Source of the DNA: Escherichia phage EP75
Sequence record: MG748547
Length of the DNA: 64,000 bases
Direction: 5' to 3' (one strand)
In this document: positions 1,919 to 37,331 of the stretch, piece after piece
Layout: each line of letters starts with the position of its first letter
Numbering within the stretch: position 1 is the stretch's first letter
Notes under the pieces: generated by a model
The model's input: the letters and a program-made list of their open reading frames with translations, nothing else
What the model was told of the DNA's origin: nothing
Database searches by the model: none
Made by a program: the position numbers and the translations under genes

Positions 1919-1966
1919 TCTAAACATAAGCAGTACGACACCAACTTGAAAAGCAGGAACTACATT

Positions 1967-2242
1967 ATGAAAATCATCCTCGACGCATATATCCGTTACG
2001 GCAGCAAATGGTTGATGGCCAAAGTTTACGACGGTGAAGAATTAGTCCACGCCCAAACCGCCCCTTCTGAACAATTGCGTGAAATTATGAAACGCGATTT
2101 TCCTACTGTTGAAATGATTGAACCTGCCAACCAAACCGAAGTTGACAAAGAATGGGAACGCGAATGGAGTCCGGCGGCGTTGGCACAATTTGATAAGAAT
2201 TACAACAATCGCCAAAACGCGTCTCGCCCGTTCCGTCGTTAA
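1967..2242 (+). CDS. hypothetical protein
   Basis: ATG at 1967 preceded by AGGA; the track ORF from TTG 1946 probably over-extends; start lies in a conserved 24-nt element. Confidence 0.45.
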   Translation: MKIILDAYIRYGSKWLMAKVYDGEELVHAQTAPSEQLREIMKRDFPTVEMIEPANQTEVDKEWEREWSPAALAQFDKNYNNRQNASRPFRR

Positions 2243-2320: not shown

Positions 2321-4708
2321 ATGGCCATCCCATCTTTCTTGAACTTTCTTGAAGAGTCTAAACAATTAGACGAAGCGTTTAACTCATCCCCGTATGAATT
2401 GACATTCGGTAAGAAGAACGCTGGTGACATTTTCTTCACATTTGTTGATGAAGACGAAAAAGAATTCCGCATCCAATTTTATACCCCGCAGGGGCTGGGC
2501 AAGAACGTTCGTCAGGTCTTCATAGGCCAGAAACGTGGTTCGACCTATCCAGACGCAATCGGTCGTTTCAAAAACCCAATGCGTGTCATCGCATCCATGA
2601 TCGAAGCAACAAAGCAATTCATGGCGACGCCTTTGGGGAAAACCATTGACGGCTTTGCAATTAACTTCTCCAAGAAAGCATTGGAACGTGGTGTTACCCT
2701 CCTGCCGAAGATCATCCGTCAGTCCGGCCTGAAGCAGAAGCTCAATGTCATGGACCTGACGTATACCCCTATCCCTGATCGTGCATTCGTATGGGTTGTG
2801 CGTAAAGGTAAGGATCCTGCTCAGGTATTCGATGGTCCGAAAATGAAAGGCGTGACTTGGGACGACCCAGACAAAGTCGGCGACGTTCCTGACCAGGCTG
2901 CTCGTGACGCCGCACTACAAGGTGACATAGATGATTTGAGCCAAGCCATAAATGCCGATTCTCGCTGGATTCTGACCAAGGCTGATCATACTCAGCCTAT
3001 GCTGGTCTGGTCTGGTAAAGAACGTGGGCGGACTATTACCGCCAATATCGCACCTCACGCGAATGAACCTGGTGTGTATGCTGGTAGTATCATGAACGAG
3101 AAACGGATCCGCGCTCAATCCCCAGACGCTATTGTACGCCAACTGGGATTACCGCAGATCCCTGTGAATATTCTGAATGATTTCACCAAGCAGTCGTCCA
3201 TCTTCTGGAAAGAGATGACGGGAGATTCTGGAAAAATAGACATGCAGACTTTGCCAAAAACAGGATCTGTGGATGACTTACGAAATCAGGGTTATATTGC
3301 TCGCCTTCTGGGGATTGTAGACACATATGCTCCACAACAGGTCGGTATGTATGCAGGTGAAAAACTAACACGAATCGGCGCGGGCAAATATCGTACTTCG
3401 GGTGGTCTGGACATTCAGGTTTATTTCTGGGGAATTGTCAACGGAAAACTTTCTGTAGAAGTAGTATCAGATTTGTCTGGTCATTACCAACTTATGCTGG
3501 AAGGAGACGTGAAAAACGCCGCTTATGAAATAGTGGGCGCAATCTCCCGTGCAGCCGATTCTCAATTTGCGGGAGAAGTAGAATGCCGTGTGGTTCCTAT
3601 CAATGGTGCCCCATATCCGATTCAAAAAATTTCCCGTTCTCAGGGATATTCTTACGTTGATTGTGGTTCTTTCACATTGAAGATCGCTGACGCTCTGCTG
3701 AATCGGTTTACCTTGGGCAAGGCGGTCAAACTTGATCTGATGAAAGAGTTTCCTCGTACAACATTCAAAGTCCGCTATGATTGGCGTGGAAAAGATACTC
3801 TGTTGGTTCAATCTTCCGACGAGCGTACTATCTTTGGTGAAATCAACACCAATTCCAGTGAAAATGCAGTGATCACTGCAAACATCAAAGTACCAAGCAA
3901 CGCTAAATTTTTTGGTGAAACCGTTCATGGCTTCTCTGTAGCGTGGGATTTCCAGTTCCCTGCTGGTAGCAAGTTGCAAGCCGCAAGATTCGTTACCAAC
4001 GTAACTTACGATTTTGATCGAAATAAAGCCAACATCACCACCATGTTGACTGAAAATGGTCGAAATGTGGTAGACAGCAATGGATATGATATTTCGTTGT
4101 CTGTCAAATCAGTGCAAGATGCATTGGATGAGATTTCTCGACGCCTGAAAGACGCGGCTTCGCAACTGAGCCATCTCAGTTCATCAAACTATAACCCTAA
4201 CAATCTGTTCCTGAATGACATCACTGTCAGTAAATTTGGCGCGATTATGTTCCAAGACAAAGATTTGGCACAGTCCAGGAACCGCACGGCAGTCATTGAT
4301 GCTTTGGCTCGGGCTAAAGATCAGGCTGCTGGAGGTAAGAATGCAGGTGATCTGGCCACCTATGCCGAATCCATTCGTGACAGCGCTCCTAATGGACGAG
4401 ATCTGGATTGGCAGGTATACACAGCCAGTAATGGTACAGTTCTGAATGTTGCTTGGGATATCACTTTCCGTCGCAATACGACCGAAGGAGCATATCGTGA
4501 ATTCAAGGATCAGATCAACCGTGCCAACCAATACCTGCAAACGGTATACAACGACGCGAAATCTAAAGGCTATAATCCTACCGAGCCAAATCTCATGACT
4601 CTTGAACGCGCTCGCCAATCCGACGAATGGGCTATGAGTAATGGTGATAGTGCATACAGTGAATATGAACAATCGCTGGGTGGTAATCTTCAGATTAGTC
4701 TGAAATAA
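2321..4708 (+). CDS. large hypothetical protein (795 aa)
   Basis: Long uninterrupted ORF with AGGAG RBS; no catalytic motif recognised. Confidence 0.6.
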   Translation: MAIPSFLNFLEESKQLDEAFNSSPYELTFGKKNAGDIFFTFVDEDEKEFRIQFYTPQGLGKNVRQVFIGQKRGSTYPDAIGRFKNPMRVIASMIEATKQFMATPLGKTIDGFAINFSKKALERGVTLLPKIIRQSGLKQKLNVMDLTYTPIPDRAFVWVVRKGKDPAQVFDGPKMKGVTWDDPDKVGDVPDQAARDAALQGDIDDLSQAINADSRWILTKADHTQPMLVWSGKERGRTITANIAPHANEPGVYAGSIMNEKRIRAQSPDAIVRQLGLPQIPVNILNDFTKQSSIFWKEMTGDSGKIDMQTLPKTGSVDDLRNQGYIARLLGIVDTYAPQQVGMYAGEKLTRIGAGKYRTSGGLDIQVYFWGIVNGKLSVEVVSDLSGHYQLMLEGDVKNAAYEIVGAISRAADSQFAGEVECRVVPINGAPYPIQKISRSQGYSYVDCGSFTLKIADALLNRFTLGKAVKLDLMKEFPRTTFKVRYDWRGKDTLLVQSSDERTIFGEINTNSSENAVITANIKVPSNAKFFGETVHGFSVAWDFQFPAGSKLQAARFVTNVTYDFDRNKANITTMLTENGRNVVDSNGYDISLSVKSVQDALDEISRRLKDAASQLSHLSSSNYNPNNLFLNDITVSKFGAIMFQDKDLAQSRNRTAVIDALARAKDQAAGGKNAGDLATYAESIRDSAPNGRDLDWQVYTASNGTVLNVAWDITFRRNTTEGAYREFKDQINRANQYLQTVYNDAKSKGYNPTEPNLMTLERARQSDEWAMSNGDSAYSEYEQSLGGNLQISLK

Positions 4709-4713
4709 GTCAT

Positions 4714-4759: not shown

Positions 4760-5329
4760 ATGAAACCGTTTATAGAATATTTTAAAGAACAAGCTCAACA
4801 ACCGCAAACTCATGGCGGCATACAAGGCAAAAGTGTAACCATCACCAAACAGGCCGACGGAACCCAATGGTGTACTGGTGCCACCGTGACCCAGATCACT
4901 CCAGATAATCAGGCCGACATCTATAATCTGGAATTGACTAACGGCAACACCACCAAAGTAAAACTCACACCGGACCAGGTTCATGCAGTTTCTGTCGGTA
5001 AAGATGTGGTTGCCGTTCATGACGGTTTTGAGTTCTTCTTTGGGAAAGATGCCAGCAAAGGTCAGGTCACAGAATCCTATGCCCAAGAATTGGCGAACAT
5101 GGATAAGATGATCGGTAAAGCGCTGGGCGTTGGCAAATCTCGTAAAAGCGGTCGTACAGAGTTTGAATATTCCGGTATTCCTGGTATTGGAAAACCTGTC
5201 GCAATCGACTTCGGCGGAGAAGACGATCCATATGTAATTGTCACAGTCGCTGGCAAACAGCATGACATCAGTAAGGGAAAAACCCTAGCTGCGGACATTG
5301 CCAAATATATCGGCGTTAAACCTGTCTAA
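4760..5329 (+). CDS. hypothetical protein
   Basis: 189-aa ORF with AGGAG RBS. Confidence 0.45.
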   Translation: MKPFIEYFKEQAQQPQTHGGIQGKSVTITKQADGTQWCTGATVTQITPDNQADIYNLELTNGNTTKVKLTPDQVHAVSVGKDVVAVHDGFEFFFGKDASKGQVTESYAQELANMDKMIGKALGVGKSRKSGRTEFEYSGIPGIGKPVAIDFGGEDDPYVIVTVAGKQHDISKGKTLAADIAKYIGVKPV

Positions 5330-5338
5330 GGAGGTTGT

Positions 5339-5581
5339 ATGAAAGGATTCCAGGACTTCCTCTTGAAGGAAGCAAAGGTTGACCATCGCCGTCTTGGACA
5401 GCAGGGCATGTATGACATCACCGACGTTGGCCGCCCTAACAAAGGCGATCTGATTGATTACTATGATCGCAACGGGGATAAACATCAGGGGAAAGTGAAG
5501 TCTGTGAACGCACAGAACATTATGACCCTGACGAACACCAGCACGGGTGAAACCGTCAAGCTGACTTTGATCAAGCCTTGA
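5339..5581 (+). CDS. hypothetical protein
   Basis: 80-aa ORF with AAGGAGG RBS. Confidence 0.45.
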   Translation: MKGFQDFLLKEAKVDHRRLGQQGMYDITDVGRPNKGDLIDYYDRNGDKHQGKVKSVNAQNIMTLTNTSTGETVKLTLIKP

Positions 5582-5587
5582 TGACAA

Positions 5588-5984: not shown

Positions 5985-6047
5985 CTCAATAGGATCATCA
6001 TCAGGTTATAATTTTGCCCATTCGTCATCAATAGGATACAGATAACA

Positions 6048-7729: not shown

Positions 7730-7834
7730 GAACTGACCTAAAACTTTTTAACTCAAAATATTTCCCTCCAGGCCTCGTTCTATGAGGCCTCTTAAAATAC
7801 TTCAAAAATATTTTAAAAATTTATTGAAAAAGAC

Positions 7835-7863
7835 TTTACTCTTCAATAATGACGCACTATTAT
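7835..7863 (+). promoter_or_regulatory. sigma70-type early promoter (TTTACT -35, 17-nt spacer, TATTAT -10)
   Basis: -35 7835-7840, -10 7858-7863, inside a 210-bp AT-rich intergenic region upstream of a highly codon-optimised gene. Confidence 0.4.
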
Positions 7864-7940
7864 AGTTCACATAGGGCGGTACACAACACCCCGCCGAATG
7901 AAAAGTGAAACGAACCAACTACATTATGAGGAATTACATC

Positions 7941-8429
7941 ATGGCTACTACCAAAACTCTGATCACCAACGGCACCATCTCTTTTGAACTGAACACTGAA
8001 GTTGCAAAAGTTGAAATGTTCCGCATCGCTCAGGCAGCTGGCTTCACTGGTGGCAAAACTTCCTTCATGAACCTGCTGAACGGCAAAGTCAAAGCGACCA
8101 ACGGCTTCACCCTGGTTGAGCAGGTTGTGGTTGACAAAGCAGTCGTCGCAAAAACCGCTGACAAAGTTGGCATGCTGAAAGGCCTGGGGCACGACATCCA
8201 CGTTGTTGAAGCTACGACCGAAACTTACGGCACCATCACTGTCGGAAAGGGGCGCATCCAGCTGAACCCGCTGAATAACGGAACCTTCTCTGTGATGGTA
8301 TTCCCGAAAAAAGGTTACGACAACAGCGATATCGTGAAAGCCGCTGGCGGTGAAGCAAAATCCCAATATGTCAAAATGGGTAAACTGAGCGCCGACGCCG
8401 TTGAAACTCTGGTAAGCAAACTGGCATAA
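7941..8429 (+). CDS. hypothetical protein, probably highly expressed
   Basis: ATG at 7941 with GAGGA RBS; codon usage (ctg, ggc, aac, ccg, cgc) is strongly biased compared with neighbouring genes. Confidence 0.5.
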   Translation: MATTKTLITNGTISFELNTEVAKVEMFRIAQAAGFTGGKTSFMNLLNGKVKATNGFTLVEQVVVDKAVVAKTADKVGMLKGLGHDIHVVEATTETYGTITVGKGRIQLNPLNNGTFSVMVFPKKGYDNSDIVKAAGGEAKSQYVKMGKLSADAVETLVSKLA

Positions 8430-8483: not shown

Positions 8484-8672
8484 ATGGGACGTCCGATTAT
8501 CCACGTTTCAGAAGGCGCGATTTGGGTTATGACCCGCATCCCTAATGTTCATTTTCCTCAGTTCCAAGAGGAAATCGAGCAAGCAATGCTAACGATCCTG
8601 GAAAAATACGGGTACGACACTGAAGTCCGTGAATCCTTCAACGAAATTATGCCTGTGGTGGTTGCGCGATGA
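8484..8672 (+). CDS. hypothetical protein
   Basis: 62-aa ORF with GGAG RBS. Confidence 0.35.
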   Translation: MGRPIIHVSEGAIWVMTRIPNVHFPQFQEEIEQAMLTILEKYGYDTEVRESFNEIMPVVVAR

Positions 8673-8974
8673 CCCTGACCCTCGAACAAATCGGCGAAGC
8701 AACCTGTCACCTCCTGAAGGAAAAGACAGGCAAGCAGTGGAAGCATCAGTTGTACAAAGATCACCCTGATGGCGTAGGGGCGATCATGATTGATAGCGAA
8801 GAGTCAACAGCCGTCCTCTTCTATTGGCAAGACACTGGCCGCTGGTCGGCTCAGACTTATGGTGGGAATAAGCAATCTAACTCCGTGCCTTCACCAGTGG
8901 AGGCATATGAAAGTCTGAAGAGAGGCATTCAAATGCAGATCGCTAATCTAAACACTCTCTTGTCAACTATCTAA
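8669..8974 (+). CDS. hypothetical protein
   Basis: 101-aa ORF, ATGA overlap with the upstream gene. Confidence 0.4.
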   Translation: MTLTLEQIGEATCHLLKEKTGKQWKHQLYKDHPDGVGAIMIDSEESTAVLFYWQDTGRWSAQTYGGNKQSNSVPSPVEAYESLKRGIQMQIANLNTLLSTI

Positions 8975-9044
8975 CATAGCAGTTCCTCAAGTCAGTTCAC
9001 TTTCACTTTAAATACCTCTGCAATCACTGCGGAGGTATTTTCTT

Positions 9045-14560: not shown

Positions 14561-14589
14561 AAGCCCCTGATCCAGGGGCTTTACTTTTG
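14561..14589 (+). terminator. intrinsic terminator
   Basis: agcccctg-atc-caggggct hairpin followed by ttacttttg. Confidence 0.55.
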
Positions 14590-14608
14590 AAACCTTCCCG
14601 CCTATACT
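14580..14608 (+). promoter_or_regulatory. sigma70-type early promoter (TTTACT -35, 17-nt spacer, TATACT -10)
   Basis: -35 14580-14585, -10 14603-14608, terminator-promoter junction as at 1877-1918. Confidence 0.4.
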
Positions 14609-14659
14609 TCCCAGTAATTCATTGGCAAACGCCACAAATTGAACAGCAGGAACTATATC

Positions 14660-14893
14660 ATGACCAATTCTGAAATATATCATGCTTCTATGCATTATCA
14701 TGACCTACGCGCCCGTCCAGGACACGCCAAACAAAAAGCATTCTGGGTAGCAGAACTCAGATTACGCCGTGCTGTCGTTAACCACCAAATAATCATGAAT
14801 CGGAAAAACGACAAATCACCGTTGTTGGCAGATTCTTATCTTGAACTCCGCACAGCCTATGAACAAGCCAAACAGCACGTAATAGGAGCATAA
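14660..14893 (+). CDS. hypothetical protein
   Basis: ATG at 14660 with AGGA RBS inside the conserved 24-nt element; the track ORF from TTG 14639 probably over-extends. Confidence 0.4.
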   Translation: MTNSEIYHASMHYHDLRARPGHAKQKAFWVAELRLRRAVVNHQIIMNRKNDKSPLLADSYLELRTAYEQAKQHVIGA

Positions 14894-21285: not shown

Positions 21286-21520
21286 TCAACAAATAGCACA
21301 AGTGCTCACACCAGATTCTTTTTCCGAATTGGTGTTGATGAGAGCAAGCCAACGCAAGGAATCAATCCTTGAAACGATGGCCAGTGTTTGTGAAGAGTAT
21401 GACATCGAAGAAGCAAAGGTCAAAAAATTGATCACGCCTCCTCTTCTGTCAAGGCTAACAGCTGAATGTTCTGATGCTCGGTTGTTGAAGGGTGAATTGA
21501 AATCTAAAAAACTCATTTAA
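21278..21520 (+). CDS. hypothetical protein
   Basis: 80-aa ORF from ATG 21278. Confidence 0.35.
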   Translation: MSDQQIAQVLTPDSFSELVLMRASQRKESILETMASVCEEYDIEEAKVKKLITPPLLSRLTAECSDARLLKGELKSKKLI

Positions 21521-21529
21521 GGTTGTAAC

Positions 21530-21769
21530 ATGAGCAAAGAGCAAATCTATAAAATGTTGAAGGCGCAAGAGTATCTGCCAGGTTCTATCCGCTGGCGGCA
21601 CGGTAGCCTCAATGAACATGCTGATGATATGGATCGTGTACGTTACACGACGCCGGAAGGTAAATCCTATGTCATCGAATACCATACATTCTTGGAAGGG
21701 CACAAAACCTTCTCAGATGTGTACGATATTATTGAAATAGACCCAGCAAAACAAATGATTGCGGGTTAA
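21530..21769 (+). CDS. hypothetical protein
   Basis: 79-aa ORF. Confidence 0.35.
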   Translation: MSKEQIYKMLKAQEYLPGSIRWRHGSLNEHADDMDRVRYTTPEGKSYVIEYHTFLEGHKTFSDVYDIIEIDPAKQMIAG

Positions 21770-21793
21770 CTCAATAGCAAAACGCAGTATAAT
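21765..21793 (+). promoter_or_regulatory. candidate promoter upstream of the SSB gene (GTTAAC -35, TATAAT -10)
   Basis: tataat at 21788-21793 with a -35-like hexamer 17 nt upstream; ~70 nt before the gene 32-like ATG. Confidence 0.3.
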
Positions 21794-26876: not shown

Positions 26877-26905
26877 TTTAACTCAGAAGCATTCAATAGA
26901 TGAAG

Positions 26906-26938
26906 GGGCTGCTATAATAGCAGCTCCTTTTGTTTATT
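26906..26938 (+). terminator. intrinsic terminator
   Basis: gctgctat-aat-agcagc palindrome followed by ttttgtttatt. Confidence 0.5.
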
Positions 26939-28656: not shown

Positions 28657-29222
28657 TGTACCCGAACCTTGAATTCTTCACGGGGCGCAAGCGCTCCGGT
28701 AAGGACTTCTGTTTGGAGTCCCTGATCAGTTTTCATCATATTCAGGGTGATATGGATATTCGTCGTCTGTCTTTCTCGGATGAACTACGACGTGTCGCTA
28801 ATTTCATCTATCCATGGCTACCAGCGGAGGTGGAGGATGCTGTGAAGGACGTTCCCTTCGTACACCCTGATAACCCCAAGGGCTTATCCCCGCGCCAAAT
28901 CTGGCTTCATCTGGGCAGCGATACGGGCTTGCGTTATGTACAGCCAGACCTGTTCCTGTCATTCTTTAAACGATATCAACTTCCTTTGGTTGAACAGAAC
29001 CCCAATGTTCATTATATCGTGAGTGATTTGCGTACTCCTCAGGAATATGAATGGGCGCTGAGCACTAAATGTCCTATCACCCGCATTTCAAAGGCGGATC
29101 GTGGTGGTATCATAGAGGATGACATAGAGGCTTTCATTGATAAGATGGAAGTTGATTATGAATTTGTCAATCCGTTTGAAGGTTGGCAACCGTTCGTCAA
29201 ATTTTATAGGGATCGGAAATGA
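28653..29222 (+). CDS. 1: deoxynucleoside monophosphate kinase (T4 gp1-like)
   Basis: N-terminal GRKRSGKD P-loop variant as recalled for T4 gp1; 189 aa. Confidence 0.55.
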   Translation: MMYPNLEFFTGRKRSGKDFCLESLISFHHIQGDMDIRRLSFSDELRRVANFIYPWLPAEVEDAVKDVPFVHPDNPKGLSPRQIWLHLGSDTGLRYVQPDLFLSFFKRYQLPLVEQNPNVHYIVSDLRTPQEYEWALSTKCPITRISKADRGGIIEDDIEAFIDKMEVDYEFVNPFEGWQPFVKFYRDRK

Positions 29223-33111: not shown

Positions 33112-33140
33112 CTTCAATAATGGTGATCATAGGGTATAAT
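33112..33140 (+). promoter_or_regulatory. candidate promoter (TTCAATAA element, TATAAT -10)
   Basis: tataat at 33135-33140, cttcaa 17 nt upstream. Confidence 0.3.
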
Positions 33141-33830: not shown

Positions 33831-33857
33831 AAAGCCCAACATTTGTTGGGCTTTACT
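33831..33857 (+). terminator. intrinsic terminator
   Basis: aaagcccaac-attt-gttgggcttt 10-bp stem followed by a T-rich tail. Confidence 0.55.
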
Positions 33858-33882
33858 TCAATAAAACTTTACTTCAATAAAA
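33851..33882 (+). repeat. perfect 16-bp tandem direct repeat (CTTTACTTCAATAAAA x2)
   Basis: Copies at 33851-33866 and 33867-33882; each carries TTTACT plus TTCAATAA. Confidence 0.8.
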
Positions 33883-33896
33883 CTTGCGGCTATCAT
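33868..33896 (+). promoter_or_regulatory. sigma70-type early promoter (TTTACT -35, 17-nt spacer, TATCAT -10)
   Basis: -35 from the second repeat copy (33868-33873), -10 at 33891-33896. Confidence 0.4.
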
Positions 33897-33939
33897 TTAA
33901 CCTACATTGAAAAGTTTCACTACATCATGAGAGGCAAAA

Positions 33940-35133
33940 ATGAAAGCCAAGACCTTCAGCATCCCAATTGATAACATTGGTCGTGTCAAGGAACGTCTTG
34001 CCAAACTTGAAAGAACGGCAAACCGCCTGAAACTCGAGTTCCCTCTTGTTGAGTTCAGTGAACCATACAAAACACAACACCGCTATTCTATCACTGGCGA
34101 AAAATTTTATCGTTGGTGGCAAGATTGTACTCTAACTGGTGAAGGCATCGACCGCCCCGTTTCTTATGGTGGGTGGAGTATCATTGGACAATTCAACCAC
34201 CAGTATCCAAAAGTCATTCTGAATAAACTGTCAGATGACATCCACCAAAATTTCGTTCAAAGATTTGAAGCTGAAAACGTATCTTGGTGCGAGCATTGCA
34301 ACAAATCTGTGCGTCGTCATAACACATATGTCGTTCGTAACGAACAATCTGGCGCACAGATGCTCGTGGGTAGCAGCTGTATGCATCATTATGTCCCGCA
34401 TCAGAAATCCCTTGATGCGGTTATGTCTTATTACATGTCTATTCACGAAATGTTTACCCCCGATGAAGATGACCCAGAAGGGATTTATCGGGTTAATGAA
34501 CCAGATTATGTTGACACAGAAGGATATTTGCGTAAATGCTTTCAGGTTTTGCTGTCCGGCCTGAGCATTAAAAGTGATGATTTTGGTCGAGTTCTTGGTC
34601 ATATCTCTAGCGGTACTCGTCCAGAGAAAGGTTCTGACATTGATATATTCTATAACAAGGCTGTTAAAGCCCGTGAAGATGCTCAATCAGAAATGTACCA
34701 TATGATGCTTTTCATCTCATCGTTGTCTGAAAATAACGATTTCAACGTCCGGCTGAAACGTATGTGCGAACCTGGTTATCACCTTGTTAAAGACTCAACA
34801 ACAGTTCGTTGGGGAGCAGCAAAGTATTATGATTATATCCACACCCCCCGCCAAACGCGCACTGTATCAAATTGGGTTGGTGAAGTTGGTGAAATGTTAG
34901 AAGCACAGGTCAAATTTGAAGCAAGGATTTTCCTGTATTCATCTGATTATGGTGACACGTATCTGTATACTTTCAAAACCAAGGAAGGCAATACCATTAC
35001 ATGGAAGACTTCCTATATGGAAACCGAATTCCTGGAAGGTGATATGATCATTCGTGGTCGCGTCAAAGAATTGACCGAATTCAAAGGTGTTAAACAAACT
35101 CAGATCACAAGGGCAAAACTGAGGAAATTATGA
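33940..35133 (+). CDS. hypothetical protein with Cys/His cluster
   Basis: 397 aa; WCEHCNK ... SSCMHHY suggests metal binding. Confidence 0.5.
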   Translation: MKAKTFSIPIDNIGRVKERLAKLERTANRLKLEFPLVEFSEPYKTQHRYSITGEKFYRWWQDCTLTGEGIDRPVSYGGWSIIGQFNHQYPKVILNKLSDDIHQNFVQRFEAENVSWCEHCNKSVRRHNTYVVRNEQSGAQMLVGSSCMHHYVPHQKSLDAVMSYYMSIHEMFTPDEDDPEGIYRVNEPDYVDTEGYLRKCFQVLLSGLSIKSDDFGRVLGHISSGTRPEKGSDIDIFYNKAVKAREDAQSEMYHMMLFISSLSENNDFNVRLKRMCEPGYHLVKDSTTVRWGAAKYYDYIHTPRQTRTVSNWVGEVGEMLEAQVKFEARIFLYSSDYGDTYLYTFKTKEGNTITWKTSYMETEFLEGDMIIRGRVKELTEFKGVKQTQITRAKLRKL

Positions 35134-37304: not shown

Positions 37305-37331
37305 ATTCAATAAAGACAGTAGCAGTATAAT
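37303..37331 (+). promoter_or_regulatory. candidate promoter (TTCAATAA element, TATAAT -10)
   Basis: tataat at 37326-37331, weak -35. Confidence 0.25.

Follow-up and report, generated by a model that had tools for sequence, protein, structure and literature searches.

A repeated promoter-to-start-codon cassette ending in a conserved 25-nt block, and its probable part in gene replacement, in a Kuttervirus phage genome

At position 1967 of the window, by which we mean the whole 64,000-nucleotide stretch of Escherichia phage EP75 DNA analysed here (record MG748547), the start codon of a small ORFan lies within a 25-nt block that recurs at other gene starts. Sequence comparison places the window in the genus Kuttervirus (Ackermannviridae; relatives ViI, Det7, and CBA120). 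The 8-kb stretch around the finding shares 90–97% identity with numerous phages of Salmonella, Escherichia, and Klebsiella that belong to this genus; the closest relative overall is Salmonella phage BRM 13312, also a Kuttervirus (97% identity), and the closest around the first site is Escherichia phage 4HA11 (99.7%). A 160-kb pseudo-genome was assembled from the window and the remaining ~96 kb from BRM 13312 (loci L002 and L003). Sites are numbered 1 to 4 according to the position at which the block begins, namely 1946, 7905, 14639, and 33907, respectively, and their features are listed below.

1863–1890, + strand: AT-rich region and stem-loop of cassette 1; TTCAATAA box at 1863–1876 and GC stem-loop GGGGCAAAAGCCCC at 1877–1890, which abuts the −35 hexamer; kept in relatives
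1891–1918, + strand: promoter of cassette 1; TTTACT, a 16-nt spacer with TTCAATAA, and TATAAT; 72–90% identity between genera
1919–1945, + strand: 5' part of the cassette 1 leader; CA-rich, AAGCAGTACGACACCAAC; homologous to the leaders at L003:13848 and L002:16101
1946–1970, + strand: translation-initiation block of site 1; TTGAAAAG-C-AGGA-ACTACATT-ATG-A; start codon at 1967; the replacement slot has its left edge at the final base
1967–2242, + strand: gene for a 91-amino-acid ORFan (phrog_5704), which occupies the variable slot; at least four other unrelated ORFs are found here in relatives
2247–2268, + strand: putative terminator hairpin; homology resumes in its 3' arm and T-tract (2249–2266), the right edge of the slot
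7794–7863, + strand: AT-rich region and promoter of cassette 2; TTATTGAA...TTCAATAA inverted around the −35; TTTACT-N17-TATTAT
7874–7895, + strand: stem-loop of cassette 2; GGGCGG...CCGCC, close to where the leader is predicted to begin; a hairpin is found at the same place in distant genera
7905–7929, + strand: degenerate block of cassette 2; GTGAAACGAACCAACTACATTATGA; Shine-Dalgarno sequence lost (ACCA)
7929–7943, + strand: second half of the cassette 2 duplication; AGGAATTACATC and ATG; functional Shine-Dalgarno sequence, spacer, and start codon (7941) of a 162-amino-acid ORFan
14562–14608, + strand: stem-loop and promoter of cassette 3; AGCCCCTGATCCAGGGGCT overlaps TTTACT-N17-TATACT
14639–14663, + strand: translation-initiation block of cassette 3; TTGAACAGCAGGAACTATATCATGA; start codon (14660) of a 77-amino-acid ORFan; profile HMM E value of 4e-6
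33832–33896, + strand: upstream part of cassette 4; stem-loop; TTTACTTCAATAAAAC tandemly duplicated at 33852–33883; −10 hexamer TATCAT at 33891–33896
33907–33942, + strand: block variant of cassette 4; TTGAAAAGTTTCACTACATCATGA without a Shine-Dalgarno sequence, then the Shine-Dalgarno sequence GAGAGG and the real ATG at 33940

The consensus of the block, TTGAAAnGnAGGAACTAYAYYATGA, comprises an A-rich upstream box (−21 to −14), an AGGA Shine-Dalgarno (SD) sequence (−12 to −9), an 8-nt G-free spacer, the ATG, and an A at +4. The arrangement AGGA-N8-ATG is found at 1955–1969 and 14648–14662, and the SD of site 2 lacks its GG. Site 1 is identical to site 3 at 22 of 25 positions and to site 2 at 20 of 25. 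The original prediction had described 24-nt elements at three of these sites; the sequences it quoted are present where it placed them, but each has 25 letters, so that the true ends are 1970, 7929, and 14663.

With up to three mismatches allowed, the degenerate 25-nt consensus matched the window only at 1946 and 14639, compared with 0 matches expected from 100 shuffles, and the 15-nt AGGAAYTAYATYATG with up to two mismatches gave six matches against 1.0 expected. Ungapped similarity to the consensus was also scored at every called gene start and at every other ATG of the pseudo-genome. The distribution of scores was bimodal (22–25/25 versus 19/25 or less), with the bulk of the 202 called starts at no more than 19/25; the ~6,100 other ATGs did not exceed 18/25, except for those at 7926 and L002:16178 (22–25) and at 29158 of the window (20). 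The six outliers at 22–25/25 are thus 1967, 14660, and 7926 in the window and L003:13925, L003:33412, and L002:16178 in the relative. Searching the 160 kb with a profile HMM built from family-wide copies yielded six matches (E ≤ 0.0034). By itself, the copy at 7905 (E = 2.4) is below significance, as is site 4. Given its TTTACT promoter, its position in the leader, and its 20/25 identity, the site 2 block is best treated as a degenerate copy, and that of site 4 is classed in the same way. The repeat among gene starts is therefore real and far beyond chance, as judged by shuffles, bimodal scores, and HMM, and both the ATG scoring and the HMM found high-scoring copies to be absent from coding interiors. 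The three genes first reported are too few, with at least six strong and about five degenerate copies per genome. A search of the genome for an antisense partner revealed no reverse-strand copy with up to six mismatches.

The partial duplication previously noted at 7905 proved to be a 15-nt tandem repeat at 7914–7943 (ACCAACTACATTATG / AGGAATTACATCATG), and it was through this duplication that site 2 acquired its SD-less layout; the ATG at 7926 is probably not used. Cassette 4, which the first reading of the sequence had missed, contains a block copy at 33907–33930 that is 1 nt shorter and lacks an SD, and its real ATG at 33940 is the start of a 397-amino-acid protein. Its layout is that of cassette 2 and also that of the gp45 leader of the relative: in all three, a new SD and the real ATG come 13–15 nt after the SD-less TTGAA-N4-8-MACTAYATYWTGAGG. 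A looser SD-less pattern gave many chance matches in unrelated viral contigs, with cassette 4 and the gp45 leader being conserved within the family.

The block forms only the 3' end of a repeated cassette of ~100 nt, which the first reading of the sequence did not recognise. From 5' to 3', the cassette begins with AT-rich sequence and a stem-loop, continues with a TTTACT-N16/17-TATAMT promoter and a leader of ~27–40 nt, and ends with the block. Four cassettes are present in the window (the three reported and that at 33907–33942) and approximately four more elsewhere in the genome; the eight TTTACT cassettes of the pseudo-genome are all on the same strand. Sequence matches to TTTACT-N16/17 followed by TATAAT, TATTAT, TATACT, or TATCAT begin at 1891, 7835, 14580, and 33868, respectively, corresponding to four TTTACT-type promoters in the window against 0.39 expected. 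The promoters attributed to the three reported sites are thus present as pattern matches, with TTTACT 55, 70, and 59 nt upstream of the element start.

The AT-rich region lies upstream of the promoter at 1863–1876, at 7794–7834, and at equivalent places in the paralogues, and it carries TTCAATAA or TTATTGAA; the promoter spacer also usually contains TTCAATAA. Stem-loops at 1877–1890, 14562–14580, and 33832–33853 abut or overlap the −35 hexamer. At L003:13848 the −35 hexamer lies within the stem; in cassette 2, no stem adjoins the −35 hexamer, and the stem-loop is instead in the leader. The GC stem-loop of the cassette would be the terminator of the preceding unit. Alignment over the full length from the −35 hexamer to the ATG, leader included, is possible for the cassettes at 1891 of the window, L003:13848, and L002:16101 (TATAMTTC..CATAAGCAGYACRACAC...).

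The number of cassette promoters, eight, equals that of the "eight tentative sigma-70 promoters" listed for AG3 and CBA120, which are the only promoters given in the papers on these two phages. The 2011 paper on CBA120 found early promoters not to be identifiable informatically, and promoters are absent from a 2024 review of the phage family. Our searches of the Ackermannviridae literature found no transcriptome, transcription start site map, or description of promoter-early stem-loop (PeSL) elements, and those for the Kuttervirus-type family found no transcript, ribosome, or recombination data.

The block is found exactly 21 nt before the ATG in four settings. In addition to following an early promoter, it follows a second upstream module consisting of TCTATAAAT and a GGCGGGG...CCCCGCC hairpin (L003:33353–33415), a module that one relative carries as a tandem repeat; it stands straight after a bare terminator hairpin with only a −35 remnant (L002:16736–16790); and it lies inside an operon (L003:12738). 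Given that the 21-nt distance to the ATG holds in every setting, the block is anchored to the start codon and not to the promoter. Six leaders folded no better than did their shuffled counterparts (z scores of −0.8 to +1.1), and the whole window gave no match in Rfam. A structured cis-regulatory RNA, such as a riboswitch, structured leader, or thermosensor, was rejected on these grounds.

To follow the block beyond the genus, we scanned 2.9 million viral contigs with the exact pattern and obtained 30 loci with 14 different protein N-termini; all but one of these loci are in 152–164 kb contigs of the phage family, the remaining one being in a 5.9-kb fragment. BLAST with cassette 1 detected 760 places in 275 phage records, with two to four per genome. 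The hosts of these records are Salmonella, Klebsiella, Escherichia, Dickeya, Shigella, Serratia, Enterobacter, and Yersinia, and three records are labelled Enterococcus or Pseudomonas. The block is thus present in related genomes of several genera. At site 1, comparison of Kuttervirus with Serratia- and Erwinia-phage loci gave identities of 0.72–0.90 for the promoter and 0.72–0.88 for the block, with the adjacent leader (0.45–0.59) and the upstream 40 nt (0.45–0.62) at background. The block at this site is therefore as conserved between genera as is the promoter core.

Changes in the spacer within and between Kuttervirus-like genomes are confined to exchanges of C and T, and spacers are G-free in the Serratia and Erwinia phages as well. 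Across genera, site 1 is strongly conserved, site 2 partially, and site 3 weakly; the site 3 leader of one relative (L014) retains AGGA...TATACAATG and lacks TTGAAA. We saw no concerted evolution of sites 1 and 3 within genomes: site 3 keeps an AGCAGG variant, and site 1 has either AAGCAGG or ACGAAGG, depending on which close relative is examined. The TTGAAAnG box is better conserved than a plain translation-initiation region (TIR) would need, and it persists in the gp45 leader and at both site 2 and site 4, where it lies 13–15 nt further from the real ATG. Such conservation and persistence on displacement hint at an additional sequence-specific function.

Comparison of relatives at site 1 revealed that homology stops at 1970/1971, that is, at the A after the ATG, and resumes at 2249–2266. 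The slot thus delimited (1971–2262) holds different inserts, each with its own ORF and its own hairpin stem. The five slot ORFs (with the N-termini MKIILDAY, MTKTELNN, MNAIKTDF, MTQLKNFT, and MTTVTGFY) are mutually unrelated, with a best E value of 0.095, and Serratia and Erwinia phages have further different ORFs at this site. A distant paralogue of the MTKTELNN ORF (site 1 ORF B), with ~30% identity, lies behind another cassette in other genomes. Different ORFs are also present behind the orthologous cassettes of L003:13848 and L003:33412, with one alternative ORF at the latter having what we take to be a denV-like N-terminus.

A break of homology at the ATG is to be expected wherever unrelated ORFs share a regulatory region, and it is therefore not by itself proof of where crossovers occurred. 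Mosaics constitute stronger evidence on this point. One relative (L004) is 100% identical to the window through the promoter and leader, differs at four of the 25 positions of the block, and then continues into a foreign ORF, and L005/L034 carries this same foreign ORF behind the window-type variant of the block. Crossovers would therefore have fallen on both sides of the block, which implies that the donor units carried the block as well. Indels of small ORFs at 5323–5584 and 8663–8993, within the same 15 kb, are not bounded by the block, indicating that gene turnover has other routes besides the cassette.

In PeSL elements, AT-rich sequence and a stem-loop accompany a promoter (TTTACW-N17-TAYWAT in T4 and PST), an SD and start codon form the 3' extremity, and variable ORFs lie alongside (PMC4122927). 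The cassettes have the same parts in the same order as the PeSLs described by Arbiol et al. 2010 (PMC2839356) and Comeau et al. 2014 (PMC4122927), their hexamers are those of the T4 and PST elements, and, like PeSLs, they are present several times per genome in similar form, next to small ORFans that vary from one close relative to another. L002:16736–16790 resembles the "degraded" PeSLs of Comeau et al., which retain the stem-loop and −35 hexamer and lack the −10. Crossovers in sequenced PeSL mini-circles fell between the −10 hexamer and the ATG or SD (PMC2839356), and the mosaics described here would place breakpoints on either side of the block. The hexamers, the A/T-rich upstream sequence, and the small genes of unknown function also recall T4 early promoters, which have a TTTAC-type −35, a TATAAT-type −10, and A/T-rich sequence upstream (Liebig & Ruger 1989, cited in PMC3184105; Hinton 2010, PMC2988021); the Kuttervirus promoters differ from these in carrying a TTCAATAA box in the spacer.

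The cassettes also differ from PeSLs in several respects. They belong to Ackermannviridae and not to T4-like phages (Tevenvirinae / Straboviridae), and we claim no sequence homology to published PeSLs; they number about eight per genome, not dozens; the 25-nt leader/TIR block is itself sharply conserved, to the same level as the promoter between genera; and the block also occurs with the second upstream module (TCTATAAAT and hairpin) and at promoter-less starts. Our literature search found no paper linking PeSLs with Ackermannviridae. On the basis of order, hexamers, and context, we class the cassettes as PeSL-like elements in another phage family. Phage "moron" units are promoter-ORF-terminator insertions in lambdoid phages. 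The region 1891–2268 is moron-like in that it forms a self-contained promoter-ORF-terminator unit with a variable ORF; unlike the situation with morons, exchange affects only the ORF and most of the terminator stem and leaves the promoter, leader, and start codon where they are, and the regulatory part belongs to a repeated family.

Taken together, these results identify a real, family-wide regulatory module of which the block is the most conserved 25 nt. The sequence data show how the cassettes are built and how many there are, that the block is tied to the ATG and lacks structure, how it is conserved, and where replacement begins and ends. The proposal of a shared leader or translation-initiation region downstream of TTTACT-type sigma-70-like promoters is supported; it did not notice that the block is also a junction of gene replacement. 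The most probable explanation is a repeated, composite PeSL-like cassette that ends in the block, with a standard TIR doubling as a recombination junction. The AT-rich, UP-like region and the T4-early-type sigma-70 promoter (TTTACT-N16/17-TATAMT) would drive transcription, presumably early in infection, and the leader of ~27–40 nt, either unstructured or with a hairpin at its 5' end, would join the promoter to the block. At the level of mRNA, the block would serve as the initiation region, probably an efficient one, for the first gene of the transcript; at the level of DNA, it would provide a short patch of homology common to many small-gene units. Homologous recombination in or beside the block may thus swap unrelated ORFs in register with a ready promoter, leader, and start codon, as has been proposed for the PeSLs of T4-like phages. 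Conservation beyond the SD and ATG would then most likely reflect selection for efficient initiation independent of context, together with exchange among copies.

ViI/CBA120-like phages are widely used in biocontrol of Salmonella and Escherichia coli O157, and their early gene regulation is essentially undescribed. The cassettes provide a concrete consensus for predicted early promoters and leaders of these phages, and they place PeSL-style modular cassettes outside T4-like phages proper. For phage engineering, they point to naturally tolerated insertion sites, such as the stretch between the ATGA ending at 1970 and the terminator (2249–2266), and they offer a defined 25-nt RNA as a candidate translational enhancer or RegA target. 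In evolutionary terms, a standardised promoter, leader, and start codon would allow newly acquired ORFans to be expressed immediately.

A different role for the block, in line with the translational operator suggested by the original prediction, would be that of a site for a phage post-transcriptional regulator, most plausibly a RegA homologue, that competes with the 30S subunit and shuts off the cassette genes. The genome encodes a genuine RegA: the protein, whose gene lies outside the window in the genome of the relative, matches PF01818 (E = 4e-35), aligns over its full length with T4 RegA (1REG; E = 2e-27), and retains T18, R21, and W81. In T4, about 30 early or middle mRNAs have RegA sites, which are unstructured, rich in A+U, and situated over or next to the AUG (PMC3014915). 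The block spans the AUG, is unstructured, has an A+U content of 68%, and contains AUUAUGA, as does the T4 gene 44 site. Conservation beyond the SD and AUG would suit such an operator, and TTGAA(A)C boxes are present in the leaders of gp44 and gp45, both targets of RegA in T4. The known RegA operators of T4 and RB69 are, however, degenerate, A/U-rich, and C-poor, with no fixed consensus (AAAAUUGUUAUGUAA for T4 and UAA repeats for RB69; PMC3014915), whereas the block is a sharply defined 25-mer with conserved C and G residues, including several C, unlike these sites or SELEX consensi. Moreover, the leader of regA itself lacks the block, and the other 189 TIRs show no enrichment of TTGAA (10 observed versus ~6 expected from a base-composition estimate). 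No structure, palindrome, or trans-factor site that would mark an operator came to light, and we consider a RegA operator unlikely.

An extension of this idea, to which we give a similarly low probability, is that the block acts as a "regulatory socket," in which a sequence-specific operator for a RegA homologue or another early-shut-off factor is fused to the start codon. If this were so, any ORF recombined after the ATGA would gain early transcription, efficient initiation, and a timed translational shut-off, and the conservation of TTGAAAnG and its persistence when displaced would reflect binding of the factor rather than of the ribosome.

The block might instead act in DNA, as an operator at approximately +28 to +52 where a phage or host DNA-binding protein switches early promoters off. 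It lies 27–30 nt from the −10 hexamer in four canonical cassettes, TTGAA/TTCAA motifs recur in the UP region, promoter spacer, and leader, and shut-off of early promoters is expected in T4-like development. The distance to the promoter varies, however (10, 27–30, or 41 nt), with that to the ATG fixed at 21 nt, and the block also occurs without a promoter or with a different upstream module. It shows neither dyad nor direct-repeat symmetry, and all copies are in the sense orientation relative to the downstream gene. Given that the block is anchored to the ATG, a DNA operator is very unlikely.

Cleavage of the SD region of the block by a RegB-type nuclease, with consequent inactivation of early mRNAs as by T4 RegB at GGAG, was found to be even less probable. 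Relatives annotate 607–1224 or neighbouring genes as "RegB," T4 RegB requires only GGA and 3' context and targets early SDs, and GGA is present in the block. The ORF at 607–1224, however, is not RegB according to Pfam, having only a marginal SLT match and an unknown-function PHROG, and the motif does not fit, in that the SD is AGGAAC rather than GGAG/U and its 3' context, ACUAYAU, departs from GGAGRAYARAA. A RegB target was thus rejected. A DUF7270 gene product adjoins the ORF at 607–1224.

That the block is nothing more than the ordinary strong SD region of an AT-rich phage is scarcely tenable. Weaker look-alikes are present at several other gene starts, and the T7 gene 10 leader, GAAGGAGATATACATATG, is a strong TIR that resembles the block. 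Position-specific composition at the 189 other ATG gene starts, however, revealed information only at the SD (−12 to −8), −3, and +4, with none elsewhere in the TIR, so that the block constitutes a discrete family rather than a generic ribosome binding site. The gap between the two classes of similarity score, the lack of consensus matches in shuffles, and the confinement of exact-pattern matches to the 152–164 kb family contigs and the single 5.9-kb fragment also contradict this explanation, and a chance or generic-RBS reading was rejected on the basis of these four lines of evidence.

Equally implausible is the suggestion that the block is coding sequence, with genes starting at TTG or GTG and sharing the N-terminal peptide K-S/R-R/T-N-Y-I-M as originally predicted: although TTG or GTG is in frame with the ATG at sites 1 to 3 and ORF calling extends to it, the supposed peptide is translated 5' untranslated region, given that no SD precedes the TTG and the "peptide" itself contains a well-placed AGGA SD, 8 nt upstream of the ATG, that the paralogue at L003:13904 has CTG in place of TTG, and that a 1-nt deletion in the 33907 copy creates a TGA in the TTG frame. 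Published annotation likewise has ATG starts, with the annotators of phage Marshall having independently placed ribosome binding sites on the AGGA and starts at the same ATGs.

Cassette 4 (at 33868), one of the four units in the window that join a TTTACT-type promoter and leader to the 25-nt translation-initiation region (TIR) block, contains a perfect 16-nt tandem duplication, TTTACTTCAATAAAAC (33852-33883), by which the -35 region is doubled; some relatives carry this repeat as a single copy or with a diverged first copy. In cassette 2, the TIR itself is duplicated in tandem and in-frame over 15 nt (7914-7943; ACCAACTACATTATG / AGGAATTACATCATG), with the SD lost from the upstream copy, and this arrangement is kept throughout Kuttervirus. 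The -35 region of cassette 3 (14580-14594) reads TTTACTTTTGAAAC and resembles the enterobacterial OmpR-box consensus, a likeness that is probably coincidental.

The layout of cassettes 2 and 4 recurs in the gp45 leader of the closest relative, Salmonella phage BRM 13312 (TTGAACCCCACTATATTTTGAGGATACAACTAATG), and TTGAA(A)C boxes are present in both its gp45 and gp44 leaders (L003:20770-20831 and 21515-21577). The sliding clamp and clamp-loader genes of T4 (gp45, gp44) are RegA targets.

We also observed a second cassette type in relatives, in which TCTATAAAT is followed by a hairpin (GGCGGGGTAT..CCCCGC) and then by the same TIR block as in the TTTACT cassettes:

L003:33353-33415 (ON169961.1 133353-133415), second cassette type in BRM 13312
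L031:1082-1664, second cassette type in another related phage

Its TATAAAT is similar to the core of T4 late promoters, and the cassette is repeated in tandem in one genome. The ORF behind it varies among relatives, its product beginning with either MTDQQIQ... or MTRINVIPVESLCDQHLLAE..., the latter denV-like by its N-terminus. In the PHROG comparison, a 170-aa product encoded downstream of a block copy in BRM 13312, outside the window (L003:33412-33924), weakly matched an Alt-like RNA polymerase ADP-ribosylase (E 1e-7); Alt/ModA have been reported missing from ViI-like phages (CBA120 paper).

Pattern matching revealed a second promoter-like class, (C/T)TCAATA(A/G)-N10-13-TATAAT, without a -35 hexamer:

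5985-6012, + strand, second-class promoter-like copy
21770-21793, + strand, second-class promoter-like copy
26892-26918, + strand, second-class promoter-like copy
33113-33140, + strand, second-class promoter-like copy
37306-37331, + strand, second-class promoter-like copy

These copies are all intergenic, with four further ones in the rest of the genome, and the strict pattern gave 2 matches versus 0.03 expected. The 25-nt block was found behind none of them. The TTCAATAA box of this class also occurs within the spacer and UP region of TTTACT promoters. Its geometry recalls that of T4 middle promoters, which have an activator box at about -30; MotA/AsiA have been reported missing from these phages (CBA120 paper).

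The ORF at 607-1224 is labelled "RegB endoribonuclease" in the phage Marshall annotation. It gave no RegB Pfam match, its only Pfam match being a borderline one to SLT transglycosylase, and its PHROG is of unknown function; the label looks unsupported.

The block forms the boundary of none of three other points of plasticity among Kuttervirus relatives:

5323-5584, small ORF (5339-5581) present or absent
8663-8993, small ORF (8669-8974) present or absent
2890-4713, variable central domain of a 795-aa protein (2321-4708)

In BRM 13312, approximately 3.1 kb without an annotated CDS (L002:23306-26470; ON169961.1 73306-76470) adjoins the tRNA cluster.
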